From an uncultured virus (IMG/VR IMGVR_UViG_3300018080_006410) (lineage: Duplodnaviria > Heunggongvirae > Uroviricota > Caudoviricetes), in the IMG/VR virus record IMGVR_UViG_3300018080_006410: a stretch of DNA of 64,000 nucleotides; one strand, 5' to 3'. Of this stretch, positions 3,244-52,445 are shown piece by piece. Each line of letters starts with the position of its first letter. Position 1 is the first letter of the stretch. Position numbers and translations under genes: made by a program. The notes below the pieces were generated by a model, which ran no database searches, was not told the DNA's origin, and saw nothing but the letters and a program-made list of their open reading frames with translations.

Positions 3244-3246
3244 CCC

Positions 3247-6681: not shown

Positions 6682-6691
6682 AGCATACGCC
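6682..6691 (-). promoter_or_regulatory. Class 2 promoter-like -10 motif (GGCGTATGCT)
   Basis: GCGTATRVT about 30 nt upstream of the ATG at 6654. Confidence 0.45.
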
Positions 6692-7462: not shown

Positions 7463-7463
7463 G

Positions 7464-14603: not shown

Positions 14604-15719
14604 TCACCCCACCTTCACGTCGTCCAGATTGCCCGGGTCCTTCCAGGAGTCCTCGGCGAAGACCGCCGTGAACAGCGGGATCGGGAAGTCCTCCCTCTCG
14701 ATCCACAGGATGAAGGGCCTGTCCAGGACGTACGGGGGACGGGCGGCACCAGCGGCGGAGCACCTGAAGCTCATGGCCGCCGCGCTCTCGGCCCTGGCGC
14801 CCGTCTCGTTCATCCGGAACCTCGTCTGCTGAACCGCCTCGGCCACGTGCCAGCCCTTCCCGCCGGACCTGACCACCAGGCCGCACAGGAAACTGATGTC
14901 CTCGTGCCGGTCATAGGAGACCATCGGGAAGACGACGCCCTCGTAGCGGTAGTCCGGGGCGTCCGCGAACCGGAGGCTCCTCACCTTCGAGTGGAGTCCG
15001 AAGTCCCCCGGCGGCATGCCCGACGCCACCGTCATGCAGACGCGGTAGCCACCCTTGGCCGCGATCCGGACGACGGGATGGTCGTGCAGGTCCGGATGCT
15101 GGACCAGGCTCACACCCTCATCCAGCCTCACGGCGTCGTAGGAGGCCCCGGCCTTCTCGATGGTCCTCCGGGTCCCCCTCTCCAGCCACTCGCACAGCAC
15201 GTCCAGGATCGACGCGACCGCGAAGCCCTCGGACCCCGGGTCGACCGTCAACTCGATGGTGAAGCCGCGCTCCCTGAGCCACCGGTTGAGCGGGGCGATG
15301 TCAGAGTCGGCCCGGCTCTCCAGGCACCCGACCCGCTCCTCAAGGACGTCCACGGTCGGGATATGCCCGGAGAAGATGTCCATGAACTCCCTCTGCTTGT
15401 CGTCGGAGGGCAGCCAGGCCCCGGTCCCGGCCCCGACGAACCTCTCGGCCGCCCTCAGGCACCCCAGGACGGGCCACACGGCGCTTGTCCCGGAGACGGC
15501 CTCCAGGGTCGTGTCGTCCAGCCTCTCCACCTCCTTCAGGAAGTCGGTCTTCGCGAGGAGCCTCCCCACGAACAAGGCCGCCTGCTCGCCTCCGATCTCC
15601 CGGCCGCCGACCCTCACGAAGTCGGCACCGACCTCCAGGCCGGTCCCCTTCCTCAGCATGCCCCCCAACGGGGAGGCGTGCACGTCCCTCTCGACCCGGT
15701 AGCACGTCACCGTCGCCAT
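14604..15719 (-). CDS. Serpin-like protein
   Basis: C-terminal QQTRFRMNETGARAESAAAM...VLDRPFILWI...PLF matches serpin s5A-hinge-RCL-s1C/s4B signature; ~371 aa. Confidence 0.75.
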   Translation of the reverse strand: MATVTCYRVERDVHASPLGGMLRKGTGLEVGADFVRVGGREIGGEQAALFVGRLLAKTDFLKEVERLDDTTLEAVSGTSAVWPVLGCLRAAERFVGAGTGAWLPSDDKQREFMDIFSGHIPTVDVLEERVGCLESRADSDIAPLNRWLRERGFTIELTVDPGSEGFAVASILDVLCEWLERGTRRTIEKAGASYDAVRLDEGVSLVQHPDLHDHPVVRIAAKGGYRVCMTVASGMPPGDFGLHSKVRSLRFADAPDYRYEGVVFPMVSYDRHEDISFLCGLVVRSGGKGWHVAEAVQQTRFRMNETGARAESAAAMSFRCSAAGAARPPYVLDRPFILWIEREDFPIPLFTAVFAEDSWKDPGNLDDVKVG

Positions 15720-15720
15720 G

Positions 15721-15915
15721 TCATGTCTCCTCGCATTCCGGCTCGACCACCAGGCCGAGCAGCTCCTGAATGTTGTCCGCCACCTCGTCGACGACGGCCT
15801 CCCTCTCCTCCTGGTCGGCGCCCTCCCACTCGTCCGCCCCGAAATGGGAGACAACCGTCTCCGCCACGGCGGCCGCCACGTCGCGCAGCCGCCCCTCTCT
15901 TATCCGCAGGTCCAT
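15721..15915 (-). CDS. Small acidic hypothetical protein
   Basis: ORF track. Confidence 0.55.
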   Translation of the reverse strand: MDLRIREGRLRDVAAAVAETVVSHFGADEWEGADQEEREAVVDEVADNIQELLGLVVEPECEET

Positions 15916-17845: not shown

Positions 17846-18721
17846 TCAGGAAGACTTTCCTGAAAATCTCCTAATAATCTCGTCTCTCCAGTGCGGCAGC
17901 GCCCATCCCGTCCTGGCCAGCAGCGCCCCGTCCATGCACGAGTTCCGCGGCCTCGGAGACACGACCCCGGGCGCCGACGCCGAATTGTCCCGGACGTACT
18001 CGGCCGTCGAGATGGGAACCACCTCGGCCGAGGCCCTGGCAGCCTGCAGGGCCGCCACCGCCAGCTCGTGCTTGGCGCATCCGCCCCCGGAGCACGAGGC
18101 ATGGAAGGTCCCCGCCAGGCGAGCCTCGCACGTCCACCAGATCGCGTCCGCCAACGCCGTCGCCGACGTCGGGTCGCCCCTCTGGTCGCCCACGACCGTC
18201 AGCGGCTTGCCGGCCCTCGCCATCTCCACCACGCGCTCCGGGAAACCCTTCCCCTCGTCCCCGTACAACCACGTCGTCCGGAGGATGACATGGTTCGGGC
18301 AGTGGGCCCTGACCGCCTCCTCTCCCTTCAGCTTGCTCAGGCCGTAGACCCCGAGAGGACCCGTCTCGTCCCACTCGACGTAGGACCCCGGCTTCTTCCC
18401 GTCGAACACGAAGCTCGTCGAGACGTAGACCATCTTGGACTTGGCCATCGCGCAGGCCACGGCCACGTTGGCCGTCCCGACCCAGTTCGCCGCCATGGCC
18501 CCGACAGGGTCGGCCTGGCAGCCGTCCACGTCCGTCCTGGCCGCGCAGTGGACCACCACGTCGGGCTCGTAGCTCTCCACGGCCACCTGCACGTCGAAAG
18601 GCGCCTCCACGTTCAGCAAAGGCAGGTCCACCCCGAAGACGTCGCACTTTCCGTCCTTCTCGAACCTCCGCATCACGACCTTCCCGAGCTGGCCGTTCGC
18701 ACCCGTCACAAGAACCTTCAT
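17846..18721 (-). CDS. rmlD: dTDP-4-dehydrorhamnose reductase
   Basis: VLVTGANGQLG, HCAARTDVD, VSTSFVFDG, YGLSKLKGE (YxxxK), VVGDQRGDPT. Confidence 0.92.
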   Translation of the reverse strand: MKVLVTGANGQLGKVVMRRFEKDGKCDVFGVDLPLLNVEAPFDVQVAVESYEPDVVVHCAARTDVDGCQADPVGAMAANWVGTANVAVACAMAKSKMVYVSTSFVFDGKKPGSYVEWDETGPLGVYGLSKLKGEEAVRAHCPNHVILRTTWLYGDEGKGFPERVVEMARAGKPLTVVGDQRGDPTSATALADAIWWTCEARLAGTFHASCSGGGCAKHELAVAALQAARASAEVVPISTAEYVRDNSASAPGVVSPRPRNSCMDGALLARTGWALPHWRDEIIRRFSGKSS

Positions 18722-28336: not shown

Positions 28337-28702
28337 TCACATCACACTCCCGGATTGCCTGACGGGCAAGGTCATCCCCTCGCACGCCCGGCCGACATGG
28401 TTCCTGAACGCCTCGACCACGTCGCACTTCGCACCGGCGTGGAAATTATACTTGCCCGAGTGCGGGTTGAACCGGTTGAGCCCCAGGGTCGCCGCCCGCC
28501 CGACATCCTCGAAGCGGCAGAAGACGGTGCAGCCCCCCTTCGGCTCCCTCTCGACGTCGGCCGTCAGCCTGCCGACCGCCGTCTCCAGCTCGAAGGCCTC
28601 CCACCTCTCGGCGTCCAAGTGGCCCTCGACCCTCCTCGCGCCCTCGTGCTCCAGGATCGCCACGGCCTCCCTCAGGAACGTCTCCTTGTCCTGCTTCTTC
28701 AT
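28337..28702 (-). CDS. Hypothetical protein
   Basis: LETAVGRL...VFCRFED...NPHSGKYNFH. Confidence 0.7.
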   Translation of the reverse strand: MKKQDKETFLREAVAILEHEGARRVEGHLDAERWEAFELETAVGRLTADVEREPKGGCTVFCRFEDVGRAATLGLNRFNPHSGKYNFHAGAKCDVVEAFRNHVGRACEGMTLPVRQSGSVM

Positions 28703-29145
28703 ATCAGATTCTCCTCTCTGAAGCTCAGGTAGTCCTTCTCCCTCTGCCCGGTCCTGCTTCCCATGATCACGTGATCTATCACCTCGATGCCGATGATCTT
28801 GCCAGCCTCCACGAGCCCTCCCGTGGTGTGAATGTCGTTCGGCGACGGGGTCAGGTCCCCGGACGGGTGGTTGTGCGCGAGGACGATCCTGCTCGCGTTC
28901 GCCACGATCGCCTCCCGGAAGACCTCCCGGGCGTGCACCATGCTCCTGTCGGCCAGCCCCCGCGTCACCATGACATCCTTGACTATCCTGTTATTCGCGT
29001 TCAGGAGGATGACATGAAACTCCTCCTGCCGGAGGCCGTGGAATATCGGGCGCATCATCCTCGCCATGTCGGTCGGGGACTCAACCCGGGGCTTCTCTTC
29101 CTTCACGTACTGGCTGAAGGCCTCCATGATCTCGCGGTACTCCAT
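28699..29145 (-). CDS. radC: RadC-like JAB/MPN domain protein
   Basis: QEEF...VHAREVFREAI...LAHNHPSGDLTPSPND...IEVIDHVI. Confidence 0.92.
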   Translation of the reverse strand: MEYREIMEAFSQYVKEEKPRVESPTDMARMMRPIFHGLRQEEFHVILLNANNRIVKDVMVTRGLADRSMVHAREVFREAIVANASRIVLAHNHPSGDLTPSPNDIHTTGGLVEAGKIIGIEVIDHVIMGSRTGQREKDYLSFREENLI

Positions 29146-31652: not shown

Positions 31653-32396
31653 TTAGTACAGCCCCTTCCGGCTGGAAACCCTGCCACTCTTCATCCGCTT
31701 CTTTTGATTCCTACATTGATCCTCAGCCCAGCATCCTTGCCAATCACAACGCCGACAATAACGACGCTTTAGACGAGTCATGAGGGGCAAATTGTCGGCA
31801 CTAATATCATCAAAAATGTCGTGCCAGACGACGTCGTACCGGACGCCCCTCGGCGGGACCCACTCGAAGGCGTCGCCGTGGACGATCTCCAGGCGGTCGC
31901 CATGGCGGGCCCGGTAGTGAGGCCCCACCAGGGCGATCACGTCCTCGGAGAGCTCCACCACCGTCACCCGCTCCACGTCCGGCCTCCGGAGCATCCCCTC
32001 GGCCACCATGCCGAGCCCGAGCCCGTTCACCAGGCAGCGCCCCCTCGCCCTCCTCATCGGCTCCATGTGGTCCATGATCTCGTCCGGGGTGTCCGACATC
32101 ACGACGCCGTTCCCGCGGACCAGGCGGGTGTAGTCCCCCACCGGCGCGAACCTCGCCACCCGCTGCGGATTGAAGGCGCACCTCATCTTCTCGAACGACT
32201 CCTCCTCCGGCGTGACGGAGAAGCGCTCCACGGCCCAGTCGCCGGAGGCCCCCTCCGGCACGTCGACCTTATGACGCTCCCAGGAGGGGACCCGGTCCGC
32301 CTCGGCCCGGATCACCTCCCGGACGCCGTCCTCGAAGGTCCTCTGGACCGTCTCGACCAGGTCCTCCATCAACATCGCCATGTGCGTCCCCGTCAT
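31653..32396 (-). CDS. SAM-dependent methyltransferase (spermidine-synthase-like phage family)
   Basis: MSDTPDE, LVNGLGLGM, VTVVELSEDVI, HGDAF, YDVVWHDI. Confidence 0.85.
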   Translation of the reverse strand: MTGTHMAMLMEDLVETVQRTFEDGVREVIRAEADRVPSWERHKVDVPEGASGDWAVERFSVTPEEESFEKMRCAFNPQRVARFAPVGDYTRLVRGNGVVMSDTPDEIMDHMEPMRRARGRCLVNGLGLGMVAEGMLRRPDVERVTVVELSEDVIALVGPHYRARHGDRLEIVHGDAFEWVPPRGVRYDVVWHDIFDDISADNLPLMTRLKRRYCRRCDWQGCWAEDQCRNQKKRMKSGRVSSRKGLY

Positions 32397-33085
32397 GCCT
32401 TCCTCCCGTCAACCGTCACCCTCTTCTCCTTCCGGCGAACCCACATGTCGTTCAAGAACCTGTACTGAATGGCCTCGCACGCATGGGATGCGCCAATCTC
32501 GTCGCACCCGTCCAGGGCGGCTATCGTGGCCGCCACCCGAACCGTCCTGTCATAGTCGAGGTTCCCCAGATCGCCCATCGCGAGCCTCATCATGGCCTTC
32601 GCGCCATCGTCAAGCTCCTTGGGACGCTCCCTGTCCCCGGACTTCCGAACGCGCCGCATCACGACCTCCGCGCTCTCGCCCTTCCTTCCCGACACGACCT
32701 CCTTATGTCTCGGCCGGACACACTCGACCACCAGATCGAAGCCGTCCAGCTCGGCCGCCAGGACGTCGTAGTGCTCCTCCAACTCCTCGACGCCGCACTT
32801 GCACTCCACGTCCGGCGTGCCGTGGGCCCCACAGGGACACACGGGATAGACGAGACAGTCGAAGAAGAGCCCGGCCTCCTTCGCCATCACGCCCCCGGCC
32901 TCCGCCAGGGCGTCCCCGTACGACCCCGCGCTCGCAAGGAGCAAGATCGGATGGCCACCGGCCAAGGCGACCTCCAGGCCGCGCTTCACGATCTCGCTTC
33001 CCGGTATGTCCTCGAACTCCATCGGAGAAACCTCCAGGGGCTCACCGACCTTGACTCTCCTCGCCTTCATGTCAGCCATGGTCAC
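32393..33085 (-). CDS. Degenerate ComM/YifB (Mg-chelatase-related AAA+) homologue lacking ATPase motifs
   Basis: DIPG...KRGLEVALAGGHPILL, CPCG...CKC, FDLVVE, GESAEVVMRRV, RVAATIAALDG...HACEAIQYR; no GKT, no Walker B. Confidence 0.8.
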   Translation of the reverse strand: MTMADMKARRVKVGEPLEVSPMEFEDIPGSEIVKRGLEVALAGGHPILLLASAGSYGDALAEAGGVMAKEAGLFFDCLVYPVCPCGAHGTPDVECKCGVEELEEHYDVLAAELDGFDLVVECVRPRHKEVVSGRKGESAEVVMRRVRKSGDRERPKELDDGAKAMMRLAMGDLGNLDYDRTVRVAATIAALDGCDEIGASHACEAIQYRFLNDMWVRRKEKRVTVDGRKA

Positions 33086-34417: not shown

Positions 34418-35167
34418 TCATGGCCCCACGACCCCCTTGCTCCGGACCACCTCGTCGGTCGCCCTTCTCACGCACCGCCAGATGCTCGTGCGGCCATGCC
34501 TGACCTCCTCCGCCTCGAAGCACGGGCTCAGCATCTCCCGGAACTCCTTCGGGCTGATCCAGAGGAAGCTCGTCACGTGCGGGCGGTAGCCCTCCCGGCA
34601 CTGGACGTGGTGGACCACGTCGCCGACCCGGTAGCCGATCTCGGTGCAGAGGTCCTGGCCAACGAAGTATGACGTCGCGTGCGGCTCCTCCTTGGGCTTC
34701 GTGTTGAAGGTGTTGAAGACGAAGACGGACGCCGCCGGCATCAGGCCCGCGAGCGCCTTGGCCGCGGCGGTGTCAATCCAGTAGTTCACCGCCTGCCGGC
34801 AGAAGACGAAGTCGGGCCCCAGCCTCGGCGCGTCCCGGTAGAGGGGCGCCGCGACGGCGAGCATCTCCTGGACCCTCCCGGGGAAGAGCCGGATGCCCCG
34901 CTTGCGCCTGAGGCGCCCGGTCATCCGGCGGCTCTCGTCCACCAGGAGGACGTCGGCCGCCCCGCGCCCGACGCACTCCTCGGCCAGCCGCCCGGAGCCC
35001 CCGCAGAGGTCCAGGACGCGCTTCCCCCGGACGTCCCCGGCCACGTCGACCAGGTCCCCGACCGGCCTCTCCTGGTAGCGCTGGTAGAGCGCCTCGTACG
35101 TCCTCCAGTCGGGGTATTCCTGCTGCCGCATGTCGGCTATCACGTTCGCGAAACCGTCCCTGCTCAT
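34418..35167 (-). CDS. Class I SAM-dependent methyltransferase
   Basis: VLDLCGGSGRL, LLVDES, DFVFCRQAVNYW, FVFNTF. Confidence 0.85.
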   Translation of the reverse strand: MSRDGFANVIADMRQQEYPDWRTYEALYQRYQERPVGDLVDVAGDVRGKRVLDLCGGSGRLAEECVGRGAADVLLVDESRRMTGRLRRKRGIRLFPGRVQEMLAVAAPLYRDAPRLGPDFVFCRQAVNYWIDTAAAKALAGLMPAASVFVFNTFNTKPKEEPHATSYFVGQDLCTEIGYRVGDVVHHVQCREGYRPHVTSFLWISPKEFREMLSPCFEAEEVRHGRTSIWRCVRRATDEVVRSKGVVGP

Positions 35168-35178
35168 GATCCTTCTCC

Positions 35179-36081
35179 TCACATGTTCGCCATGGCCGTC
35201 GCCAGCTTGGCGCGGCCACTCTCCTCCTCCTCCAGGGCGTCGTCCCACAGGCCGTCGTCCCGGAGGCCCTCGATCTCCTGCCCCACCAGGTCCGAGATCA
35301 CCTGCGGCGGGAGCGAGTCCAGCTCCCACGACTCGTAGCCGTGAAGGTCCACGTAGGACCCCGGCGTCACGTTCCCCTGCCTGTCGACCCCGGCCCGCAC
35401 GTCCGACAGCTTGGCCGGGTTCGGGGGCGGCCCGTGGAGCCTCACCTGGTCCATGTTCAGCGCCAGGCGCCGGACCTCGACGGGGCCGTCCACGAACAGG
35501 CTCAGCCTCTCCTCGATGTCCCTCGTCATGTCGATCCCCGAGGGGTCGTGGTCCCCCAGGTGCAGGACGATCGGCGCCCTTCCTGCCTGGACGCGACGCG
35601 CCATGCGCTCCGCCGCCTCGTGCATGAAGCTCTGGGAGACGTAGCCGCGGCAGGCGAAGTAGGGGACCTGGTGCTGGTCGCACACCCCGTCAATCACGCC
35701 GACAAGGGCCTGCTTCTCGATCCACACCTCCAGGGCCACCTCCTGGCGGGCCCACTTGTCGATCCGGAACTGCGAGACCACCGACGACATGATCTCCCTC
35801 GGCCCGTCCCAGTGCGGCAGGCTCCGGAGCGTCCTGGTCCTGTCCTTGATGACCCCCCAGTCGATCAGCCCCGCCATCCTGGCGTCGCTCACGATCGACT
35901 GGAGGCGCTTGTACGACCTCTCGGTGTTCGGCAGCAGCGCCCGGGCCACGAACTGATAGAACAACTGGCGCAACGTCAGGTCGTATCCCTGCCCGACATA
36001 CTCGTCGATGATGTCGTTGGCCTGATCGACGACGTCCAGCGCCGGCCCCATAAACCTCCTGTCCACGTAGGCGATCTTCAT
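35179..36081 (-). CDS. Topoisomerase VI subunit A-like (Mini-A/Spo11-like TOPRIM) protein
   Basis: LTLRQLFYQ (5Y-CAP Tyr), EVWIEKQAL, RGYVS, LGDHDPSG (DxD), WELDSL. Confidence 0.8.
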   Translation of the reverse strand: MKIAYVDRRFMGPALDVVDQANDIIDEYVGQGYDLTLRQLFYQFVARALLPNTERSYKRLQSIVSDARMAGLIDWGVIKDRTRTLRSLPHWDGPREIMSSVVSQFRIDKWARQEVALEVWIEKQALVGVIDGVCDQHQVPYFACRGYVSQSFMHEAAERMARRVQAGRAPIVLHLGDHDPSGIDMTRDIEERLSLFVDGPVEVRRLALNMDQVRLHGPPPNPAKLSDVRAGVDRQGNVTPGSYVDLHGYESWELDSLPPQVISDLVGQEIEGLRDDGLWDDALEEEESGRAKLATAMANM

Positions 36082-36599
36082 GTCATCCCCCCCCTGTTCG
36101 GCAAAGGCTCGTCCACGAAGACCCTCTCGGCCCTCGGGTCGTCCTCCATCTCCACGGCCATCCTCGCCACGACGTCGAGCGGGACTCCGTGCGTCCCTCG
36201 CTCCAGGCAGAGCCGGACGTCGTCCAGGTCCTTGCACCACATCTCGACGATCCTGACCACGTATCCCATCAGCATCCCGATCTTGACGTAGTTCTCGTAC
36301 ATCCACCGCTTGACGTGCGTGTTCGCGACCACGATGGTCCTGCGCACGTCCCCGAAGACCTCCACGGAGGCCCCGGGGCCGGTGGCGTCCAGCAGCATCG
36401 CCGACAAGACCTTGGCCATGCACGCCGACACAGCCTCGGACTGCCTCTTGATGTCGAATCGGTACTCGCGAATGCCGCTGTCCAAGAGGGCCATGTGGAA
36501 GTCGTCGTTGCAGCAGTGGACGGCGTCCGGATAGACCGCCTTCGCCCAGCTCGTCTTGCCCGAGCCCGGAATTCCCCGCATGATGACCAGCGTTGCCAT
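36078..36599 (-). CDS. AAA_33/polynucleotide-kinase-like P-loop protein
   Basis: IMRGIPGSGKTSWA, NDDF, VVANTH, HGVP. Confidence 0.85.
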   Translation of the reverse strand: MATLVIMRGIPGSGKTSWAKAVYPDAVHCCNDDFHMALLDSGIREYRFDIKRQSEAVSACMAKVLSAMLLDATGPGASVEVFGDVRRTIVVANTHVKRWMYENYVKIGMLMGYVVRIVEMWCKDLDDVRLCLERGTHGVPLDVVARMAVEMEDDPRAERVFVDEPLPNRGGMT

Positions 36600-39639: not shown

Positions 39640-40434
39640 TCACGCCATCCGGAAGCAGCCGCCGCCAGCCCGCTCGAAACGCCCGTCGCCCTTGCGCATG
39701 GCCTTGGCGATGGCGTCCCTGAGGGAGTTGGCGGGATTGCTCGCGGTGGTCTTGTAGACGCCACTGGCGATGGCCCGGTCGGCGATCTCACTGTAGTGCA
39801 GCCCGCCCGAGGAAGCTTCCGCCAGCACCACGCACGCCGCGTCGAGGATGGACATGCCCGCGCCAGCAGCCTTCGAGGCAGCCTTCGGAGCAGCCTTCGG
39901 GGCAGCCTTCCTGGTCCTCTTCGGAGCGGCCTTCGGAGCGGCCTTCGGAGCGGCGAGGGTCTCGTTGACGATCCCCGCCAGCTTGTCGCCGTGCTTCTTG
40001 ACGAGCCAGTCCTTCATGTCGGGCGAGAACGCCTCGTTGATCGTGTGGTACTGGCCCTTCTCGTCGTCCTTCAGGTTGAACACGGTCTTCGTCCGGCAGC
40101 TCCGCTTGAGCCACTTCGCCGTCTCGCAGGCGTCCACCAAGGCGCAGACGAACTTGTCCTCAGGCTCGAACTTTTCGTCGGTCACCGACCGGACGTGATT
40201 CACGAAGAGGGCCTCCTCCGGCGTGCACCGGAGCGTCCACGGCTTATCCTCGTGGTTGACTATGTCCACCTCGACGCGAGTCTCGGCGTAGTCGAGCCAG
40301 TGGTAGTCGTAGCAGCCGCCGTTGGCCGAGTCGTCGACCGTGGCCACGCGCTTGCCGTCGCGATAGAGGGTGGCGTTGAAGCCTCTACCCTCAAGGCCCC
40401 TGAGGCTCTTGACGTTCCTGATCTCGTAGTTCAT
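39640..40434 (-). CDS. Protein with N-terminal phage domain, histone-like (PKAA)n linker and C-terminal HARE-HTH
   Basis: SILDAACVVL...LHYSEIADRAIASG...NPANSL...RFERAGGGCF. Confidence 0.8.
   Translation of the reverse strand: MNYEIRNVKSLRGLEGRGFNATLYRDGKRVATVDDSANGGCYDYHWLDYAETRVEVDIVNHEDKPWTLRCTPEEALFVNHVRSVTDEKFEPEDKFVCALVDACETAKWLKRSCRTKTVFNLKDDEKGQYHTINEAFSPDMKDWLVKKHGDKLAGIVNETLAAPKAAPKAAPKRTRKAAPKAAPKAASKAAGAGMSILDAACVVLAEASSGGLHYSEIADRAIASGVYKTTASNPANSLRDAIAKAMRKGDGRFERAGGGCFRMA
39867..39953. repeat. 12-bp tandem repeats (gcrgccttcgga) encoding PKAA
   Basis: About 6 copies, read directly. Confidence 0.85.
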
Positions 40435-40467
40435 CTCGATTCTCCTTTGTCGACCGCGTCTCCACCT

Positions 40468-40497
40468 CCATATTGCCAAAAGAGGGCGGTTTTCCAC
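40468..40497 (-). promoter_or_regulatory. Class 1 promoter-like motif, copy 6
   Basis: ccatattgccaaa-agagggcg-gttttccac. Confidence 0.8.
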
Positions 40498-40541
40498 GCG
40501 GACCGGAGAAAAAAGCTGAAAAAACACCAGGAAGGGACCCG

Positions 40542-40925
40542 TCACTCCGCCTGACGGCTCGACGGGCGCCCCCGGCTCCTCTTGACCTTGAAAGTCGGGA
40601 AACGGTCACGGGCACGCTTCCGGAGCGGGCAATGGGCGAGTTTCAGCGGAACGCCGCAGAAGGCCAGGAAGTTCCTGGCGCTCACGCAGGCCGCCCGGTT
40701 GTCCTTCGGGCTGGCGATCCTGACGGCGCCCTCGTCCGGGTGGTTCACGAAGTCGACGCCGACCCTGGAGCGCTCCCTGTCGAAGTAGAAGACGGCGTGC
40801 GAGAACTCCCTGATGCGGAAGCGGACGCACGCCGCCGTGTTGAAGCCGATCTTGCCATTGGCATAGATCACCGCCATTGGCTCGTCTACGCGTCGCCTGC
40901 CCCCCGCGAACTTCTCGAACGCCAT
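40542..40925 (-). CDS. Hypothetical protein, possibly a swapped-hairpin DNA-binding fold
   Basis: IYANGKIGFNTAA...FYFDRERSRVGV. Confidence 0.6.
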   Translation of the reverse strand: MAFEKFAGGRRRVDEPMAVIYANGKIGFNTAACVRFRIREFSHAVFYFDRERSRVGVDFVNHPDEGAVRIASPKDNRAACVSARNFLAFCGVPLKLAHCPLRKRARDRFPTFKVKRSRGRPSSRQAE

Positions 40926-43355: not shown

Positions 43356-43743
43356 CCACTCCTCTCCCCATCCTCTCCCGCAGCCTCCTCCTGACCATGG
43401 CCGCCGCGGCAGCCGGCGCCTTGACCACCACCGCCGCCGGAATCCTGAGCGTCTCCACCCCGACCCTCCCCAGCCTCTCGTCCCGCTTCCTGTCTCCCGC
43501 CCTCCTCCCGGCGTGGTGCGGCCCGTCCACCTCGACGGCGAGCCCGGCCGCCGGGCACCAGAAGTCCAGAATGTAGCCTTTCATCACCCTCTGCTTGTAG
43601 AACCAGACGCCCAGCTTCCTCGAGCACAGGCGCTTCCACATGGCCCTCTCCGGCCCGGTCTGGTTCCTGGCCATCCGCGCCGCCTTCCGGCGCTTCCACT
43701 CGGCCGACCCGCGGCCCAGCCCCCTGTAGCTCCTCCTGATCAT
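43333..43743 (-). CDS. DUF559/Vsr-like endonuclease
   Basis: TGPERAMW...FYKQ...YILDFWC...AVEVDGPHH...RDERL. Confidence 0.88.
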   Translation of the reverse strand: MIRRSYRGLGRGSAEWKRRKAARMARNQTGPERAMWKRLCSRKLGVWFYKQRVMKGYILDFWCPAAGLAVEVDGPHHAGRRAGDRKRDERLGRVGVETLRIPAAVVVKAPAAAAAMVRRRLRERMGRGVGGHGSRG

Positions 43744-44897
43744 CCGAACACCTCCACGAGCCTTCTCCTGAGGGCATACGGGTCGGCCCACGCCGGCATC
43801 TCCCCGGGACGGAACGGCGGCTGCGCCAGCATCGCCATGTAGGCGTCGTCGTCCCGGTCCAGCTCGACCACCCTGTCGACCGCGGCCCCCACGTCGTCGA
43901 AGTCGTGGCAGTTGACGAAGGCCAGCGGGTTGAACTCCTCGGCCGCGCGAGGATCGCCCCAGTAGATCGGCACGCTCCTGGCAGCCAGCGGCTCGGCCAG
44001 CTTCTCGGTGACGTAGCCCGGCTTGGAGTCGTTCTCGAACGCCACCGTGAACTTGTATCGGCGAAGGAACGCCCTCGGCTTCATGGCCAGCATGTCCGAG
44101 GTGCCTTTCGGCACGAGCCTGCCGCCCATGTTGTTCAGGCCGGTCGGCCCGAAGGCGTCCACCCCCCGGTAGGCCGACAGCAGCTCGAACACCTCCCGTC
44201 TCCGGTCGGTGTCGTGCCCGTACACGAAGGAGCAGAAGCTCGTCTTCCGACGAAGCTCGGCGAGCGGGCTGAAGTCCGGGCGCCCGAAGAAGTCCCGCGG
44301 CCTCTGGTGGACCGCCGACGACGCACAGGGCATCCGCATGTGCCTGGGGTCCCGGACCTCGTCGTCGAAGCCGTGGGAGAAGGCCCACTCGCAGCCGCCC
44401 ATGTCGGCGTCGCAGGCCTCCATCGTCCCGAAAACCCTGTCGTGGGGGCCGGCCCCCACCTTCGGCATCTCGAACTCGTAACGGCCGTCCCGGAGCGCCT
44501 TGACCTTGTTCTCCTCGCCCACGTCGAAGACCACAACCTCCGGGTCGGACTCCTCGTCGACGTCGTACCACTCATCGGCGAACCAGCGCCACATGCCGAC
44601 GCCGTCCTGGGAGTGCATCCACCTGGCCCGCAGAGGGCGCCTCACCCCGCCCACCGCCTCGCGCCAGCCGTAGACGCCCCTGCCGAACGTCCTGCGGCGC
44701 CAGAAGGCCGCCACGCCCCTCCCTCCGTCCAGAACCCCCGACTCGTGCGCCCACGCCATCTTGTCCATGCAGAACGCGTCGCCGCCCCGGGCGCCGTCGG
44801 CCCACGCGGAGACGGCTCCGGCCTCGTCTCCCGACAGCCACCGGTCCCACCCCCTGCCGAGGGGGACGCTGAACCGTGAGCCTGGAGTCGCCCTCAT
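43740..44897 (-). CDS. GT10 alpha-1,3/4-fucosyltransferase-like glycosyltransferase
   Basis: FCSFVY...YKFTVAFEND...GYVTEKL...VPIYWGDP...FNPLAFVN. Confidence 0.9.
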   Translation of the reverse strand: MRATPGSRFSVPLGRGWDRWLSGDEAGAVSAWADGARGGDAFCMDKMAWAHESGVLDGGRGVAAFWRRRTFGRGVYGWREAVGGVRRPLRARWMHSQDGVGMWRWFADEWYDVDEESDPEVVVFDVGEENKVKALRDGRYEFEMPKVGAGPHDRVFGTMEACDADMGGCEWAFSHGFDDEVRDPRHMRMPCASSAVHQRPRDFFGRPDFSPLAELRRKTSFCSFVYGHDTDRRREVFELLSAYRGVDAFGPTGLNNMGGRLVPKGTSDMLAMKPRAFLRRYKFTVAFENDSKPGYVTEKLAEPLAARSVPIYWGDPRAAEEFNPLAFVNCHDFDDVGAAVDRVVELDRDDDAYMAMLAQPPFRPGEMPAWADPYALRRRLVEVFG

Positions 44898-45337
44898 CAC
44901 TGGAGACCCTCCCGCGAGGACTCCAGGGACGCCTCCAGCGCCGCGATCTCCTCCTCGACTATCCTGGCGCCGCTCAGGATCGCCGCCTCCCGGTGCTCGT
45001 CGTTGCCCACGTTCCTGAACAGCTCGCTCGCCATCCTCACCGCCACCCGGTCGGCCACCGCCTGCGCCGACATCGAGACCAGCGGACCCACGCCGCCCAT
45101 CCCCTCGCGCATGACGGCCTCCATGGCCTCCCTCCCCCTCTCCATCTCCAGGAGGCGAATCGCGTCCTGCCTCCTCCCCACCACGTACCCGACCAGCATC
45201 CCGAAGAAGCAGCAGAAGCAGGAGAGGACGGCCGAGAGCGACGCCACGAGCGGCCACGGCACGAAACTCGCCATGCCGCCCCCGAAGGCCCCGAGGACCG
45301 CCGAGCACAGGATCGCGTGCTGCGCCTTCCACCTCAT
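44897..45337 (-). CDS. Membrane protein with two hydrophobic helices
   Basis: MRWKAQHAILCSAVLGAFGGG...CFFGMLVGYVVG. Confidence 0.6.
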   Translation of the reverse strand: MRWKAQHAILCSAVLGAFGGGMASFVPWPLVASLSAVLSCFCCFFGMLVGYVVGRRQDAIRLLEMERGREAMEAVMREGMGGVGPLVSMSAQAVADRVAVRMASELFRNVGNDEHREAAILSGARIVEEEIAALEASLESSREGLQ

Positions 45338-45922: not shown

Positions 45923-47920
45923 TCAGTCCCACTGCGGCGGCCACCTCTTCACCCACTTGAAAACGACCTTGCCCACGCCACTATCGTCCTCCCACGAACC
46001 GAAAAACTCATCCGTCAACCTGTAGTCGTTCAAGGTCGCGAAAGGCACGGTCGTAATCTTCTCCAGCTGCGCGAAAGGGGTCTGGATGATGGGAGCGTAA
46101 AACCACGGTCGCCAATACTCCCTTCGATCCCTTCGGCCATCAACTGTCAACCAGTTCCAAGCTCTGGCATTGTAGAAATCGTACGGCGGAAGCAGCCTGT
46201 ACTCCTCCAGGCGCAAACGTGTCATGTTCAAGTCAGTCGCTTCCCATTTATGGCAGTGGATAAACCGCTTCAGAGGCACCAGGGGGGTCGTCTCTGTTGT
46301 CTTGGACAGCCGATACAGATCGGGACAGATGGTCACGGACTCGCCCGAGCGCTTGTCGTTCGGGCTCAGCGGGTCCACGGAGGGAGGCTGCCAGGTGATC
46401 CCGCACCACGTCTTAGGAAGGTCCCCCTCGGGATTCTCGGCCGTGATCGTTATCTCCATCTGCGGACACTGAACCTGCTCGCCGAGTCTCGTGCAATTCA
46501 TCACGCAGTTGTGGGGGGCCGAGTTGAGATTGCCGAGGCAGGTCTGGTCGCGACCCTTCGCCGTGCCACCAACCCGGGGATCAAGGTCGTCAGACCAGCT
46601 CGTGTAGAAGGCCCTCGCGCCCCCCGGCCCGCCATTCGGCTTGTTGGAGAGGCATGTCGTCTGCTGCGAGACCTGCATCAGGGACGTCCAATCCTCGTTG
46701 TGGGCCATCCCGAGGTAGTGCCCTATCTCGTGGAACACGCAGTACGCCATGCTGAGGCTGAACGGATCGGACCTGGCGTCCGGGCGCCAGCGGTACTTGG
46801 AGTTGATCCTGATGTTGGAGCCTATGGAGACAACCTCCCCGAGAGACGGATGCTCAAGACACAGGGGGCGCCTGTTCGTGCGGCCAGCTTCGTCAAGACC
46901 CATCGTTGCCATGGAGAAGCGTATGTCGGCCGCCTCCGGATGGTCCGAGACCCTGAACAGGGGAAGGCCGGGAAGCGGCCCGGTAAGACCCCAAACCTCA
47001 TCAGCTATGTTCACGAAGTTGACGATCAGACCCGGATACTTCTCCTCCAGTATCTCCTTCCACTTGGCGAACGCCAACGCGATGTCGGCCCTCCATTCGT
47101 CGATGCCTGGTATGTTCTCGTTGTGACCCTTGAACCAGAAACCGCCCCCCACCGACGCGGCCTCCGCGGCGTCCCTGATCGGATGCGGAGCCGTCTGCGG
47201 GAACGGCACCTTGTAGTAGCCGTAATCCGGGTCTCCCGGAATTATCGACCATCTGAAGGTCAACGTCGTAGGTGTCGGCAAATTGTCGATAGCACACTGA
47301 AGGTCCAAGAGAGGACCCCCGTTCGAAACGGCCTGATTGGACTTGCACGAAACAATAGGATTGGCCTTCGCGAACCTCTGCTCGCTTTCAACCTCCCAGT
47401 CCTTCGGAACGAACTTGCCCGAATATTCATACCTGTCGTCATGCTGCCAAGGCTCGCCCCAGCTGGCTTTCTGCTTCGGATAGAGAAGGTAGAAAAAATG
47501 GTCGCCCTCCGCCGGAAAGCCAGCTTGCGCCGCCGTATACCAACCAGGATATTCATGCGGCCGAATCACGTTCTTCCCATAGTGCAGCATACCCCCGATA
47601 TCCGGCAATTCCTCCTCGAAAGGCGGAATGCTCTCGTACGACAGCGCATACGCCATCACCTCCAACGCCTCCGGCTCCGAGGCCACGCCCGGCCTGGAGT
47701 CGTCCCACGCACGGTCGCTGTACCAGGAAACGACACCGGGATTCTGACTGGGAGCCTGAGCCCTCCCGTACGCCTTGGGGATCACACCACCCCCGGAGAC
47801 GGAGCCGCCGGAGAAGACACGGGAGCCACCAGCCCACTCGGCCTCCTCCAGCCTCTCCTGCTCGTCGTTCGACGGGTTCGGCCTGTACCTCGGTCCAGGG
47901 CTCTGTCCTTGATCCGCCAT
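45923..47920 (-). CDS. M10/matrixin-like zinc metalloprotease, paralog 1
   Basis: AFAKW, ADIRFS, HEIGHYLGMAH, Met-turn SLM. Confidence 0.85.
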   Translation of the reverse strand: MADQGQSPGPRYRPNPSNDEQERLEEAEWAGGSRVFSGGSVSGGGVIPKAYGRAQAPSQNPGVVSWYSDRAWDDSRPGVASEPEALEVMAYALSYESIPPFEEELPDIGGMLHYGKNVIRPHEYPGWYTAAQAGFPAEGDHFFYLLYPKQKASWGEPWQHDDRYEYSGKFVPKDWEVESEQRFAKANPIVSCKSNQAVSNGGPLLDLQCAIDNLPTPTTLTFRWSIIPGDPDYGYYKVPFPQTAPHPIRDAAEAASVGGGFWFKGHNENIPGIDEWRADIALAFAKWKEILEEKYPGLIVNFVNIADEVWGLTGPLPGLPLFRVSDHPEAADIRFSMATMGLDEAGRTNRRPLCLEHPSLGEVVSIGSNIRINSKYRWRPDARSDPFSLSMAYCVFHEIGHYLGMAHNEDWTSLMQVSQQTTCLSNKPNGGPGGARAFYTSWSDDLDPRVGGTAKGRDQTCLGNLNSAPHNCVMNCTRLGEQVQCPQMEITITAENPEGDLPKTWCGITWQPPSVDPLSPNDKRSGESVTICPDLYRLSKTTETTPLVPLKRFIHCHKWEATDLNMTRLRLEEYRLLPPYDFYNARAWNWLTVDGRRDRREYWRPWFYAPIIQTPFAQLEKITTVPFATLNDYRLTDEFFGSWEDDSGVGKVVFKWVKRWPPQWD

Positions 47921-47953
47921 GTCCATACTCCCTTACACTACCAAACCAACGCT

Positions 47954-48664
47954 TCATCTCGATGATCTTCGAATGCTTCCTGCTCCATTCCCCACAGCGT
48001 CTTCTTCCTTGATCTCGACATTCCGAAGCCGAGCCCACATGGCCTCCCTCCCCTCGGCCGACTTGGCCTCGACCAGCTCAACCAACCCGACCCACTCGGG
48101 ATCGTCGGCCCACCGGCGCTCGACCCTCTTTGCCTCCAGCCACTCGACCCACACTTTCCGCGTGAAATCGCATGGCGAAGGACGCTCGACCCTCTTTGCC
48201 TCCAGCCACTCGACCCACTCGACCTCGGCCTTCATCAACCGGTCCTCGCCATACGCGGCACTTTCCAACGCGAGCCACACAAAGTCGTTCCTCGGCCACT
48301 CGGCCCTCATCCGCTCGACCCACTCGTCATCCTCGGCCCTCGTCGACTCGGCCTTCATCAACTCGGCCCACGCGGCATCGTCGGTCCTCACCCACTCGAC
48401 CCACCCGACCCACGTGGCCCACGCGGGAGCGCCAGCCCCGATCCTCTTCTGGCGCTCAATCAACTCGGTCCACACGACCCTCAGCATCTCGGCCAACTCG
48501 ACCCACTCAGGATCGCGAGCCGCCCGCCTCTCGGCGAGCCTGACCCACCCGAAATCCGTCTCTTGAACGAGTCCCTCGGGCCTTCTCTCGTCGGGGTGGG
48601 TGTCCGCCCGGACCGACGACCCCACGCCAAGGGCCAGAAATAAAAAGAAAAACGCACATCTCAT
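47954..48664 (-). CDS. Signal-peptide protein with Trp/Glu-rich repeats, paralog 1
   Basis: MRCAFFFLFLALGVGSSVRA; repeated WVEWLEAKRVER. Confidence 0.7.
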   Translation of the reverse strand: MRCAFFFLFLALGVGSSVRADTHPDERRPEGLVQETDFGWVRLAERRAARDPEWVELAEMLRVVWTELIERQKRIGAGAPAWATWVGWVEWVRTDDAAWAELMKAESTRAEDDEWVERMRAEWPRNDFVWLALESAAYGEDRLMKAEVEWVEWLEAKRVERPSPCDFTRKVWVEWLEAKRVERRWADDPEWVGLVELVEAKSAEGREAMWARLRNVEIKEEDAVGNGAGSIRRSSR

Positions 48665-48791: not shown

Positions 48792-50777
48792 TCAGAGCCA
48801 CTGGTCGGGCAACTGCTTCTTCCACGTGAAAGTCACGCCGCTCCCATCCGTCACCAAGCCGAAAAAGGGGTTCGTCAGCCTGTAGCTGTTCAAAGTCGGT
48901 ATCGGCACACCCAGAATCTCTCCCAGCTGCGAGTGCAAGATGTAGGTGAAAGGCTGACCGAAGTGGTACCAATAGAACACCTCGTCCTGTCGGCCGTCAA
49001 CTTGCAGATGGTTTGTGGCCGCCCGCTGCCACAGCCACCACTCCGATGGATCGGGTTGTACGTATATGTAGCGATCCAACTCCAGGCCAGTCACATGCCA
49101 GTATTGCCAGCGGTTGATCCGTCTGTCATACGGCGGGGGGTCTGGCAGCAACGTTGTCCGCTTGGCCAGATCATATCGGTTGGGACAGACGGTCGCGGAC
49201 TCGCCCGAATACCTCTCATTCCAACCCAAATCCTCAACGGAACTAGGCTGCCAGGTGATCCCGCACCATGTCTTCGGAAGCGAGACGTCGGCAGCTGTGA
49301 TCGTTACCTCCATCCGGGGACACGGAACTCGCACGCCAAGTCTCTCGCAGTTCCCCGCGCACTTGTGGGAAATCCCGTTGATCTCGTCAAGGCAGTTCAT
49401 GTCGCGAGCCTCCGCCGTGCCGCCGACCCTCGGGTTCAGGTCCTCAGACCAGCTCGTGTAGAAGGCCTTGTCGCTGTTGCCGCCGGCATTCGGCTTGTTC
49501 TCAAGGCAGAGCGACTGCTGCGAAACCTGCATCAGGGACGTCCAGTCCTTGTTGTGGGCCATCCCGAGGTAGTGCCCTATCTCGTGGAACACGCAGTACG
49601 CAATGCTGAGGCTGAACGGGTCGGACCTGTCGTCCGGACGCCACCGATAGTCGGGGCTGATCGTGATGTTGGAGCCGATGGAGACGAACTTCCCTAGAGA
49701 CGGGTACCCGAGACACAGGGGGCGACGGCGGGTGCTGGCAGCATCATAGTCAAACTGCGGAGCCATGGAGAAACGTATATCAGCCGCCTCGGGATGGTCC
49801 GCGACGCTGAAAGGGATGCCACCGTTAAGCGGACCAGCAGCACCACCCCAGGTCTCGTCGGGTAGTTGCACGAAGTTGATGGTCAGGCCCGTGTACCTCG
49901 TCTCCAGCATCTCCTTCCACTTGGCGAACGCAAATATGATATCGCTCTTCCATTCGTCGATGCCAGGTATGTTCTCGTTGTGACCCTTGAACCAGGGACC
50001 GGTCCCCGCGTCCGCCGCGTTGGCAATCGGATGCGGCGTCGTCTGCGCGAACGGCGTCTTGTAGTAGGTGTAAGTATCCTTCCCATCGATTATCGACCAT
50101 CTGATGGTCACCGTCTTTGGCAGGTTATCAATGGCGCACTGGAGGTCCAAGAGCGGACCGCCATCCAGAGCGGTCAGGTTGGTCTCGCGCGAGATGACCG
50201 GGTCGTACTTCGCGTACCTTGGACTTACACCTTCAACCCGCCAGGTCTTGGGAACGAACTTACCCGACTGGGCGTATCTGTCTTGATGTACCCACGGCGT
50301 GCCCCACGAGCGGTCCTGCCACGGATAGGCAAGGAAAAACACGTCCTTGCTCGGAGGGCTAAGTTGAGTCCCAAAATGCCAACCAGGAGTGTAGGGCAGA
50401 TTCGTACCACCCCGAAAGTAAGCCTCCAGCGGACCCATGCCCCCAAAACTCCGCCAGTCGAGCGGGCCAGGTGGATCTAGGTCATCGACGCTCTTGTACC
50501 GACAAACCCACTGGCCCCATCCTGAAGCCTTCGGCTCCGAGGCCACGCCGGGCCTGGAGTCGTCCCACGCACGGTCGCTGTACCAGGAGACCACGCCGGG
50601 ATTGCCACCCTCCTGGGACCTCCCGTACGCCCTGGGGATCACCCCGCCCCCGGAGACGGAGCCGCCGGAGAAGACGCGGGAACCGCCAGCATACGCCTCA
50701 TCCTCCAGCTTCTCCTGCTCATCGTTCGACGGGTTCGGCCTGTAGGTCGGCCCAGAGCTCTGTCCTTGATCCGCCAT
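48792..50777 (-). CDS. M10/matrixin-like zinc metalloprotease, paralog 2
   Basis: HEIGHYLGMAHNKDWTSLM; colinear with paralog 1. Confidence 0.85.
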   Translation of the reverse strand: MADQGQSSGPTYRPNPSNDEQEKLEDEAYAGGSRVFSGGSVSGGGVIPRAYGRSQEGGNPGVVSWYSDRAWDDSRPGVASEPKASGWGQWVCRYKSVDDLDPPGPLDWRSFGGMGPLEAYFRGGTNLPYTPGWHFGTQLSPPSKDVFFLAYPWQDRSWGTPWVHQDRYAQSGKFVPKTWRVEGVSPRYAKYDPVISRETNLTALDGGPLLDLQCAIDNLPKTVTIRWSIIDGKDTYTYYKTPFAQTTPHPIANAADAGTGPWFKGHNENIPGIDEWKSDIIFAFAKWKEMLETRYTGLTINFVQLPDETWGGAAGPLNGGIPFSVADHPEAADIRFSMAPQFDYDAASTRRRPLCLGYPSLGKFVSIGSNITISPDYRWRPDDRSDPFSLSIAYCVFHEIGHYLGMAHNKDWTSLMQVSQQSLCLENKPNAGGNSDKAFYTSWSEDLNPRVGGTAEARDMNCLDEINGISHKCAGNCERLGVRVPCPRMEVTITAADVSLPKTWCGITWQPSSVEDLGWNERYSGESATVCPNRYDLAKRTTLLPDPPPYDRRINRWQYWHVTGLELDRYIYVQPDPSEWWLWQRAATNHLQVDGRQDEVFYWYHFGQPFTYILHSQLGEILGVPIPTLNSYRLTNPFFGLVTDGSGVTFTWKKQLPDQWL

Positions 50778-51285
50778 GTCCTCGCTCCCTTGCATGGATG
50801 TCAAACCAACGCTTCATCCGCACGGTTCTCGGATGTCCTCTCCGCCATTCCTCGTCGGTCTCCTCGGCCTCCTCGGCCTCGATTTCCCTCAGACACTCGG
50901 CCTTCTCAGCCTCGATCATCTTCTGGCGCTCAGCCTCCTGGCGTTTCTTCACAAGCCCTAACCAGAACTCTAATTCCTCATTCGAAACCACAACAAGTAT
51001 CGTGCCCTCGTCAAGCCAGAAACGGACATGGAAGTACGGCCAATCCATCTCGGACACTTCGGCCTGCTTGACGTTAGCCGACTCAACCAACCCGGCCCAT
51101 TCTCCCCAGTCGGCCCACCCGACATCCTCGACCTCGGCCCACTTGGCGTCCAACCACCTGGTACACCTGGCATTTTTGGCCCAGTAGGCCCTCACCTGCT
51201 CCATGAATCCGTTTGGACCGATGTCCGCCCGGACCGACGACCCTACACCAAGGGCCAGAAATAAAAATAAAAATGCAAACCTCAT
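50719..51285 (-). CDS. Signal-peptide protein, paralog 2
   Basis: MRFAFLFLFLALGVGSSVRA; mature part highly diverged from paralog 1. Confidence 0.7.
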   Translation of the reverse strand: MRFAFLFLFLALGVGSSVRADIGPNGFMEQVRAYWAKNARCTRWLDAKWAEVEDVGWADWGEWAGLVESANVKQAEVSEMDWPYFHVRFWLDEGTILVVVSNEELEFWLGLVKKRQEAERQKMIEAEKAECLREIEAEEAEETDEEWRRGHPRTVRMKRWFDIHARERGHGGSRTELWADLQAEPVER

Positions 51286-52445
51286 GTCATCAGGTCCCTT
51301 CTTCTCGCCTCCTCCACCGCCGCCTGAGCGGCCGCCGAGAAGACCCCCGCGTCATCCGCGTCGTTGTGGCGCCCGAAGCTCACCCTGATCGTCGACGCGC
51401 GCTGTGCCCTCGTTCGCCCCATCGCCTCCAGGACATGGGAGCTGGCCCCCCTGGAGCAGGCCGCCCCGGTACCCACGCAAATCCCGTACCTGTCGTCCAG
51501 GATCGCCGCCACCAGAGCCGCCTCGGCCCCGTCGAAGGTCAGGCTCACGATGTTAGGCAGCCTCTCGGCGCCGCCCCCGTTGACCGTCACGCCGCCCAGC
51601 GCCGCCAGCCCCTCGACCTCCCGCCTCATGCCTTCCCACTTGGCCCGGCTCGCCCGGAGGGAGCTCCAGGCCATGTCGCAGGCCACCCCGAAGCCGACCA
51701 CCTGCTGCACCGGGATCGTCCCGGCACGCATGCCGCCCTGCTGGCCGCCCCCGTGCAGGAGCGGGTCGATGCCGACCTCCGGCCCCACGTAGAGGGCGCC
51801 GACGCCCATCGGGCCGTGCATCTTGTGGGCCGAGAGAGTCATCAGGTCGACCCCCATCTCGCGCGGGTCGAACTCCATCTTCCCGAACGTCTGGGAGGCG
51901 TCCACGTGCAGGAAGCACAGGCGGTCCCTCAGCCTCTCGCCAATCTCGGCCACCGGCTGGAGCACCCCCGTCTCGTTGTTGGCGTGCTGGACGGAGACGA
52001 GGACGAGCCCCCTCTCCAGCTCCTCGTCCAGGGCGTCCAGGGAGACGACGCCGTCCTGGTCGACCGGCAGCTCCACGAGCTCGACGCCCCTGGTCGCCGC
52101 CAGCCACCTGGCCGGATCCAGCACCGAACCGTGCTCGACGGCCGAGACAGCGATCCTCGCGCCCTCCGAGGCCCTGAAGCCCTTCAGGGCCCAGTTGTTG
52201 GACTCGGTGCCTCCGGACGTGAAGCAGACCTCCCCTGGAGGGTCGCCCAGCAGGCCCATCACCTTCTCCCTGGACTCGTCGACGGCGCGCATGGCCTCTA
52301 CCCCCAGGTGGTAGGACGTCTCCGGGTTCCCGAAGCGCTCCTCCAGATACGACATCATGGCCTCGACCACGCCCGGATCGACCATCGTCGTCGCGGCGTT
52401 GTCCAGGTACGTCTCGCGGCTCCTCAGCTCAAAAGACGGCCTCAT
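51282..52445 (-). CDS. iscS: PLP-dependent cysteine desulfurase (IscS/NifS group)
   Basis: YLDNAATT, FTSGGTESNN, NNETG, HVDASQ, SAHK, GAACS, IRVSFG. Confidence 0.92.
   Translation of the reverse strand: MRPSFELRSRETYLDNAATTMVDPGVVEAMMSYLEERFGNPETSYHLGVEAMRAVDESREKVMGLLGDPPGEVCFTSGGTESNNWALKGFRASEGARIAVSAVEHGSVLDPARWLAATRGVELVELPVDQDGVVSLDALDEELERGLVLVSVQHANNETGVLQPVAEIGERLRDRLCFLHVDASQTFGKMEFDPREMGVDLMTLSAHKMHGPMGVGALYVGPEVGIDPLLHGGGQQGGMRAGTIPVQQVVGFGVACDMAWSSLRASRAKWEGMRREVEGLAALGGVTVNGGGAERLPNIVSLTFDGAEAALVAAILDDRYGICVGTGAACSRGASSHVLEAMGRTRAQRASTIRVSFGRHNDADDAGVFSAAAQAAVEEARRRDLMT

Follow-up and report, generated by a model that had tools for sequence, protein, structure and literature searches.

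The closest described relative of the protein analysed here is ComM (YifB), an AAA+ helicase that drives branch migration. As reported for the Legionella pneumophila protein, whose residue numbering we use throughout, ComM is monomeric unless ATP and DNA are present, and its Lon domain is needed for oligomerisation. The Mg-chelatase-C (lid) domains surround the ring without mutual contact, and each supplies R463, named as the arginine finger, in trans to the ATP of its neighbour (PMC11612176). The same structural work assigns sensor 3 to R316 and the catalytic glutamate to E302, and its cryo-EM analysis showed a zinc finger that was not modelled (PMC11612176). DprA recruits ComM and attaches to its Mg-chelatase domain by a winged helix; point mutants of this interface behave like a comM deletion, and in Vibrio it includes a salt bridge between a ComM arginine and a DprA glutamate (bioRxiv 10.1101/2024.10.21.619469), the published Vibrio ComM interface residues being L455 and R497. 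Mobile elements commonly disable comM by insertion, the Legionella plasmid small RNA RocRp silences comM and radC together, and a 2025 review raises the question whether ComM acts directly in removing inserted mobile elements (PMC12378983). Here we describe mini-ComM, a short relative of ComM encoded in a 64-kb stretch of DNA from an uncultured virus of the Caudoviricetes (IMG/VR record IMGVR_UViG_3300018080_006410; the whole stretch is called the window). The evidence supports a ComM-derived protein that lacks every catalytic element of its parent.

Profile searches tied mini-ComM to two ComM domains. The first 38 positions of Mg_chelatase (PF01078) matched residues 24-60 (E = 1.1e-7, above the cut-off), and the last two thirds of Mg_chelatase_C (PF13335) matched residues 156-209 (E = 4.5e-8; 34 bits versus a cut-off of 26). 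The NCBIfam YifB model TIGR00368 was matched at E = 9e-18, but with 64.1 bits against a cut-off of 362.4, and NF007365 gave 32.5 bits against a cut-off of 530; no dedicated Pfam or NCBIfam model matched the protein. The sole solved relative found by sequence was Legionella ComM (8rxd), at E = 3e-5 with the single sequence and 8.3e-31 with a family profile, and mini-ComM was colinear with residues ~187-235 and ~329-499 of that structure. On these alignments the homology to ComM is far beyond chance, and an earlier note on this DNA, which had called the 230-residue open reading frame (ORF) colinear with the ComM/YifB AAA+ region, is upheld by the Pfam, NCBIfam and PDB matches. The absence of the Lon-like N-domain, also claimed there, was confirmed: the Pfam scan of mini-ComM gave no PF13541 match and the alignment starts at ComM ~187, whereas a full-length ComM scanned as a control (from genome G008) does match PF13541.

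Of the ComM AAA+ module, mini-ComM retains the outer shell: the N-terminal helix, strands beta1 and beta5, the Cys4 zinc ribbon and the Mg-chelatase-C lid (Table 1). This peripheral lid domain is the functional ComM surface that it keeps intact. The central block has no residues at all in mini-ComM, and the family-profile alignment skips ComM ~236-328, in agreement with the earlier report that some 100 residues including Walker B were deleted; the described change of Walker A to ASAGSYGD likewise aligned to ComM 218-225. R316 lies inside the deleted block, and R463 falls in an insertion relative to the mini-ComM profile, the residue in the query being Leu176. By homology to MCM and BchI, the arginine of the LDR[IF]D motif is presumably the arginine finger of ComM. 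That name had been used in the earlier note, which reported DR(F/I)D changed to DGFD; the replacement of this arginine (R381) by glycine stands, while the name does not, since the published structure gives the arginine finger to R463, which is also lost (PMC11612176). Binding and hydrolysis of ATP in the manner of ComM are ruled out for mini-ComM, which is neither an ATPase nor a helicase and lacks everything that ComM uses to form rings on DNA. Its isoelectric point of 5.2 and net charge of -9, in a region that is basic in 15 of 15 full-length ComM proteins, also disfavoured a DNA-binding role for this member.

Mini-ComM belongs to a large family of short forms. An exhaustive search of 1.84 billion cluster representatives returned 1982 matches at E ≤ 1e-3 and 267 at E ≤ 1e-10. 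Among 154 sampled proteins (the best 150 of that search plus the matches of one further search), 115 shared the short architecture, colinear end to end at ~30-50% identity. We aligned these 115, of 185-260 residues, with 15 full-length relatives of 495-525 residues, and left out 24 of other lengths. The central block comprised 0-4 residues in 97 of the short forms and 5-46 in the other 18, versus 99-103 in the full-length proteins. Cys83, Cys85, Cys95 and Cys97 were invariant in all 115 short and all 15 full-length relatives. Lys34, Arg35, Gly43, His45, Glu204, Ala205 and Tyr208 were each kept in 103-113 short and 12-15 full-length sequences, and Val39, Ala40 and Ala189 each in 104-109 short forms; the latter three are conserved in full-length ComM as well, except for Val39 (Ile is commonest there, 11/15). 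The catalytic features behaved differently. The Walker A pattern GxxxxGK[ST] was found in 29 of 115 short versus 15 of 15 full-length forms, arginine at the LDR column in 10 versus 15, and arginine at the R463 column in 15 versus 15; all three features were absent from 81 short forms and present together in 4. The window protein shows the short pattern throughout: ~190-240 residues, no central block, Cys4, KR..E..A..G.H and H..EA.QY.

A FastTree phylogeny of the shared columns, rooted on full-length ComM and built from a sample limited to the best matches to the window query, gathered the 115 short forms into a single clade (support 0.71). The short forms that still bear Walker A made up a basal grade, and a derived clade of 78 without Walker A held the query (support 0.775). 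With these moderate supports, the tree suggests that a single ancient deletion came first and that the orphaned P-loop then decayed. The ESM Atlas contains three short clusters of 198-216 residues and 94-142 members, 65-83% viral among the members with a record, and its full-length ComM clusters are 100% bacterial. For the query there were no PHROGs families at E ≤ 0.1 and no PADLOC matches, and minis related to it matched only generic ATPase or clamp-loader PHROGs, weakly. Nine weak partial tblastn matches to INPHARED phages included no colinear full-length one, and BFVD held no short analogue, its best match being a 478-residue full-length phage protein. An exact 50-mer of the gene had no match in the viral contig collection, nor did a single-protein scan of metagenome contigs return one.

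The gene itself is intact. Its position-specific GC content (0.67/0.43/0.85) follows the pattern of the surrounding genes, its stop codon overlaps the start of the next gene (ATGA at 32396-32393), and the TGA of the upstream gene, at 33084-33082, lies 3-4 nt ahead of its start. The ATG at 33079 is a likelier start than the GTG at 33085, because a GGAGAG Shine-Dalgarno sequence stands 8 nt ahead of it and identical database copies are called from that ATG (228 residues, P0155). Three assemblies carry such identical protein copies, on contigs of 120, 139 and 298 kb.

Selection was assessed by the Nei-Gojobori method on the DNA of ~30 further short-form loci, using 11 pairs, some sharing sequences, from the 25 with at least 55% identity. 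The ratio of nonsynonymous to synonymous substitution (dN/dS) was below 0.5 in all 11. Six unsaturated pairs, with dS of 0.14-0.94, gave 0.011, 0.147, 0.180, 0.205, 0.206 and 0.234, and the highest value, 0.467, came from a pair with just 16 differences and a probably over-extended ORF. For the window protein and its relative at locus L074 (49% identity), dN/dS was 0.226 with dS saturated. An AlphaFold2 model from a 49-sequence alignment reached a mean pLDDT (per-residue confidence) of 91 and a pTM (predicted TM-score) of 0.88, with an alpha/beta part (a helix at 31-43, a strand at 47-51, a helix at 57-71 and a strand at 76-81), the ribbon loop, a helix at 99-113, a strand at 118-122 and a four-helix C-terminal domain. 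ComM was the top structural match to this model in Foldseek; VIA-align against ComM 8rxt_A gave Z 13.8 and a root-mean-square deviation of 2.5 Å over 176 residues (model 23-215, chain 190-500), and TM-scores to full-length ComM clusters in the ESM Atlas were 0.78-0.79. These results confirmed that mini-ComM is well folded, evolutionarily maintained and under purifying selection. It is maintained rather than decaying because it belongs to a large colinear family with an invariant Cys4 set, dN/dS of 0.01-0.23 and a confident fold. This agrees with what the earlier note had read from the intact, GC3-biased frame and its translational coupling, and the check that it had proposed, purifying selection together with consistent motif loss among homologues, came out in favour of maintenance (dN/dS 0.01-0.23; 81/115 with none of the three catalytic features).

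How might such a protein act? Because the motor core is lost while the zinc ribbon and the DprA-docking outer domain are kept, mini-ComM is probably a partner-binding protein rather than an enzyme. The reading we favour, tentatively and at somewhat short of an even chance, is that it interferes with the ComM-DprA axis by binding, most likely as a mimic of the DprA docking site; DprA is favoured as the partner because the retained lid is the published docking site of its winged helix. In this scheme an internal deletion would have taken out the ATP-hydrolysis and DNA-pore core of the ComM module, after which the leftover P-loop and arginines would have decayed. The remaining protein would work by stoichiometric binding, mimicking the retained ComM surface and occupying DprA or another ComM partner. 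One outcome could be that DprA is uncoupled from ComM, which would stop branch migration by ComM and also the removal of integrated elements through recombination; another could be that DprA-RecA is redirected to the element's own DNA. More generally, phages and integrative elements might carry a ComM docking-domain mimic that titrates DprA (or caps ComM) and so disables branch migration in trans, a generalisation that we regard as doubtful.

Mini-ComM genes sit on mobile elements, being found on phage contigs and in bacterial metagenome-assembled genomes (MAGs), and the nearest short clusters of the Atlas are mostly viral. The element carrying the window copy is most likely a large phage, because all credible genes of the window (~65% GC) lie on the minus strand, most without a family assignment, because identical copies sit on contigs of 120, 139 and 298 kb, and because a neighbouring gene is phage-like. 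On six IMG/VR phage contigs the neighbours of the mini were DNA ligase, DNA methyltransferases, a ParB-methyltransferase, an HNH nuclease, a dNMP phosphatase and a dCTP deaminase. Minis were found in three bacterial MAGs and lie near integrases at loci L013 and L014; in L013 an S-adenosylmethionine synthetase gene (MetK-like, phrog_1569, E = 2e-129; 6889-7998) stands directly upstream. At the MAG locus L015 the mini is flanked by a sliding clamp and a primase-like gene; a helicase lies upstream, and an invertase accompanies the module. All three MAGs with a short form (3/3) also encode full-length ComM and a long DprA, whose DprA_WH winged-helix domain was confirmed in the one DprA scanned (G008), and none of the five phage records carrying a mini encodes DprA.

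At the metagenome loci the neighbours were mostly small unknown proteins, the others including a resolvase or integrase, RadC, a SprT/YgjP-like peptidase, a PD-(D/E)XK nuclease, GmrSD_N and NADAR. No neighbour was conserved among the 29 dereplicated loci that we counted, many of them short contigs; the most frequent families reached 3-4 of the 29. A conserved operon partner was rejected, the mini itself being the sole gene common to all 29. One unknown family without a Pfam match, not present in the window, stands directly downstream of the mini at four loci (L002:2871-3347, L091:4007-4726, L086:798-1652 and L105:1425-1781), and a second small unknown neighbour family was also seen at 4/29. 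RadC lies within a few kilobases of the mini at three (the window, L077:4368-4850 and L081:3368-3832); the radC mentioned in the earlier note is indeed there, as a RadC-like JAB protein (Table 1), and the association is weak but suggestive. At L082 a relative of mini-ComM (2087-2701) stands ~350 bp upstream of type I-E Cascade genes (3047-6995) for Cse1, a CT1975-like protein (Cas_CT1975) and a CRISPR_assoc protein.

Other explanations were weighed against this body of evidence. A decaying, functionless pseudogene or fragment of a captured comM would account for the loss of all catalytic motifs and for the 64 bits against the NCBIfam YifB cut-off of 362. However, the frame is intact with a third-position GC of 0.85, the fold is confident, 115 colinear relatives carry invariant cysteines, dN/dS is 0.01-0.23 and identical copies recur in three assemblies, so that this reading keeps hardly any probability; we rejected it on the invariant Cys4 family, the confident fold and the low dN/dS. 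The earlier note had proposed a poison subunit that enters host ComM rings. As a poison or cap, mini-ComM would dock on a ComM protomer as its ring neighbour and, without the arginines and the P-loop, block ATP hydrolysis or ring closure and thereby directly inactivate the ComM helicase. The helix of the LDR[IF]D motif and the lid are kept, which leaves part of the trans-acting face in place, with the cis face deleted, and the frequent insertion of mobile elements into comM shows selection to disable ComM (PMC12378983). Against this, ring formation by ComM requires the Lon domain as well as ATP and DNA, and the Mg-chelatase-C domains in the ring have no mutual contact (PMC11612176), while in mini-ComM the Lon domain, P-loop, Walker B, R316, R381, R463 and pore loops are all absent. 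Ring entry is disfavoured because the determinants for Lon-, ATP- or DNA-dependent contacts are missing and every ATP- or DNA-bridged contact is gone; no other contact through which mini-ComM could enter is known. We consider a poison or cap subunit improbable, and a direct ComM cap less likely than a role in the element's own machinery. As written, the poison-subunit claim is unsupported, with the Lon domain, both ATP-site faces and the DNA pore loops missing. The decoy idea behind it remains plausible in a wider sense, with DprA the likelier partner and the ComM ring a less likely target.

A role in the element's own machinery would make mini-ComM an accessory or scaffold of replication, recombination or establishment of the phage or element that uses its ribbon, N-terminal helix or lid to bind a phage protein and has no link to ComM or DprA. 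We rate it as a serious rival, if rather unlikely, and it has points in its favour: the N-terminal helix and the zinc ribbon, and not the lid alone, are most conserved; the L015 mini is flanked by clamp and primase-like genes, with a helicase upstream; other loci place minis among DNA methyltransferases, ligase, ParB-like genes and RadC; and no integrase was seen in the 64 kb examined. The absence of a conserved neighbour (top families at 3-4 of the 29 dereplicated loci) counts against it, since it argues against an obligate phage-encoded partner nearby, and phages this diverse are more likely to have a conserved host protein as their common partner. DprA docking-site mimicry, in turn, has to be held against a series of observations that weigh on the other side. 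The decoy role, which we infer, draws on domain retention and published ComM biology. A pure DprA decoy would need the lid alone, whereas the N-terminal helix and ribbon are most strictly conserved. The lid has lost positive charge (median net charge 0 in minis versus +5 in ComM), which matters because the Vibrio interface includes an Arg-Glu pair. The setting of the L015 mini among helicase, clamp and primase-like genes would suit a function in replication of the element itself just as well. The co-occurrence of minis with ComM and DprA carries no information, because both are near-universal in control genomes, and among three matched genomes host tracking was flat, the minis being no closer to the ComM of their own genome than to others. 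A scan of 80 window ORFs gave no integrase, and if the phage is lytic, the gain from blocking transformation or curing is unclear.

Table 1. Mini-ComM, its parts and other genes of the window (window positions; residues counted in mini-ComM)
Feature	Position	Strand	Remarks
Mini-ComM ORF	32393..33085	minus	230 residues from GTG 33085; 228 from the likelier ATG 33079
Residues 22-62: AAA+ N-terminal helix (KRGLEVALAGGH), strand beta1, helix alpha1	32900..33022	minus	aligns to ComM 189-229
Residues 51-58, ASAGSYGD: degenerate Walker A	32912..32935	minus	aligns to ComM G218-T225 (GAPGSGKT); Lys224 to Gly, Thr225 to Asp
Residues ~70-74: junction of the missing central block	32864..32878	minus	full-length ComM has 99-103 extra residues there (Walker B/E302, sensor 3 R316, pore loops)
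Residues 83-97, CPCG...CKC: predicted Cys4 zinc ribbon	32795..32839	minus	C83/C85/C95/C97 invariant in relatives
Residues 113-117, LDGFD: LDR[IF]D motif	32735..32749	minus	Arg (ComM R381, LDRID) to Gly115
Residues 137-212: Mg-chelatase-C (lid) domain, four helices	32450..32677	minus	VAATIA and H..EAIQYR kept; trans-acting Arg (ComM R463) is Leu176
RadC-like JAB protein	28699-29145	minus	Pfam E 2e-38; 3.2 kb downstream of mini-ComM
C-5 cytosine DNA methyltransferase	54083-56320	minus	745 residues, intein-interrupted (Hint, intein-splicing and LAGLIDADG matches)
Orphan methyltransferases	4893-5522; 31653-32396; 34418-35683		
Adjacent ParB_N-domain proteins	56310-56924; 56860-57462	minus	
HARE-HTH protein	39640-40545	minus	
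Gene with nucleotide similarity to phage genes	35179-36423	minus	65-72% identity over ~200-600 bases; no Pfam match
Large paralogues	45923-47926; 48792-50804	minus	667 and 670 residues; each with a weak matrixin (Peptidase_M10) match, unusual for a phage
Protein with C-terminal serpin match	14604-15854	minus	416 residues; E 1.5e-5, 24.8 bits, under the Pfam cut-off of 27
Sugar/cell-envelope genes	17846-18721; 43740-45332; 51282-52445; 58489-59355; 61190-62050	minus	RmlD-like reductase, GT10 fucosyltransferase-like protein, class-V aminotransferase, two GT25 glycosyltransferases (one with a Sel1 repeat)

Several other genes of the window stand out (Table 1). The ParB_N proteins, the HARE-HTH protein and the orphan methyltransferases are together typical of counter-restriction or establishment regions. 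The phage genes similar to 35179-36423 are annotated as 'DNA topoisomerase', 'DNA binding protein' or hypothetical and come from Xylella, Xanthomonas, Microbacterium, Curtobacterium, Pseudanabaena and Pseudomonas phages. Local GC content drops to 0.56 at 62001-64000 and to 0.60 at 46001-48000, versus ~0.65 elsewhere.

Text searches of the literature returned no description of a short, ATPase-less ComM. The 2025 review of conflict between competence and mobile elements lists comM insertion and small-RNA silencing of comM and radC among the mechanisms, and the terms 'decoy' and 'dominant-negative' occur in its available text 0 times (PMC12378983). The architecture, the selection and the mostly viral nearest Atlas clusters of mini-ComM are solid; its function is inferred. 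If DprA docking-site mimicry is true, mini-ComM would be a protein-level counterpart of the inactivation of comM by inserting mobile elements. It would also be the first inhibitor from a virus to act on transformation and chromosomal curing at their recombination step; a widespread, selected and catalytically dead ComM remnant would then be a trans-acting route to the same end as comM insertion. Whatever its function, the family shows that a stable domain remains after the three central strands of an AAA+ module and the two faces of its ATP site are cut out, and it supplies a minimal construct made by nature for work on the ComM zinc ribbon and lid.

Compared with known systems, ComM/YifB (TIGR00368; PF13541, PF01078 and PF13335; 8rxd/8rxt) is the best match to mini-ComM in both sequence and structure. 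The two share the N-terminal AAA+ helix, beta1, beta5, the embedded Cys4 ribbon and the C-terminal Mg-chelatase domain. Unlike ComM, however, mini-ComM has no Lon-like domain, has ~100 residues deleted and bears substitutions at Walker A, R381 and R463; it is acidic, not basic as ComM is in the same region, is less than half as long, and has mostly viral nearest Atlas clusters. Because most of the defining ComM/YifB features are missing, it should not be filed as a ComM helicase and is better described as a derived, non-catalytic variant of the family. The Mg-chelatases BchI/ChlI and MCM, of the same AAA+ clade, match its fold over ~175-190 residues (Z 12.9-13.0 for BchI/ChlI and ~11-12.7 for MCM), but these are weaker matches than ComM, show no match to the CPCG..CxC ribbon by sequence and are active ATPases. 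The described strategies directed at ComM, insertion of AbaR islands or prophages into comM and silencing by the small RNA RocRp, are likewise borne by mobile elements and would concern the same recombination step if the favoured reading holds (PMC12378983, PMC11441513). Insertion and RocRp have the gene (in cis) or the mRNA as their target, whereas mini-ComM would be a trans-acting protein mimic.

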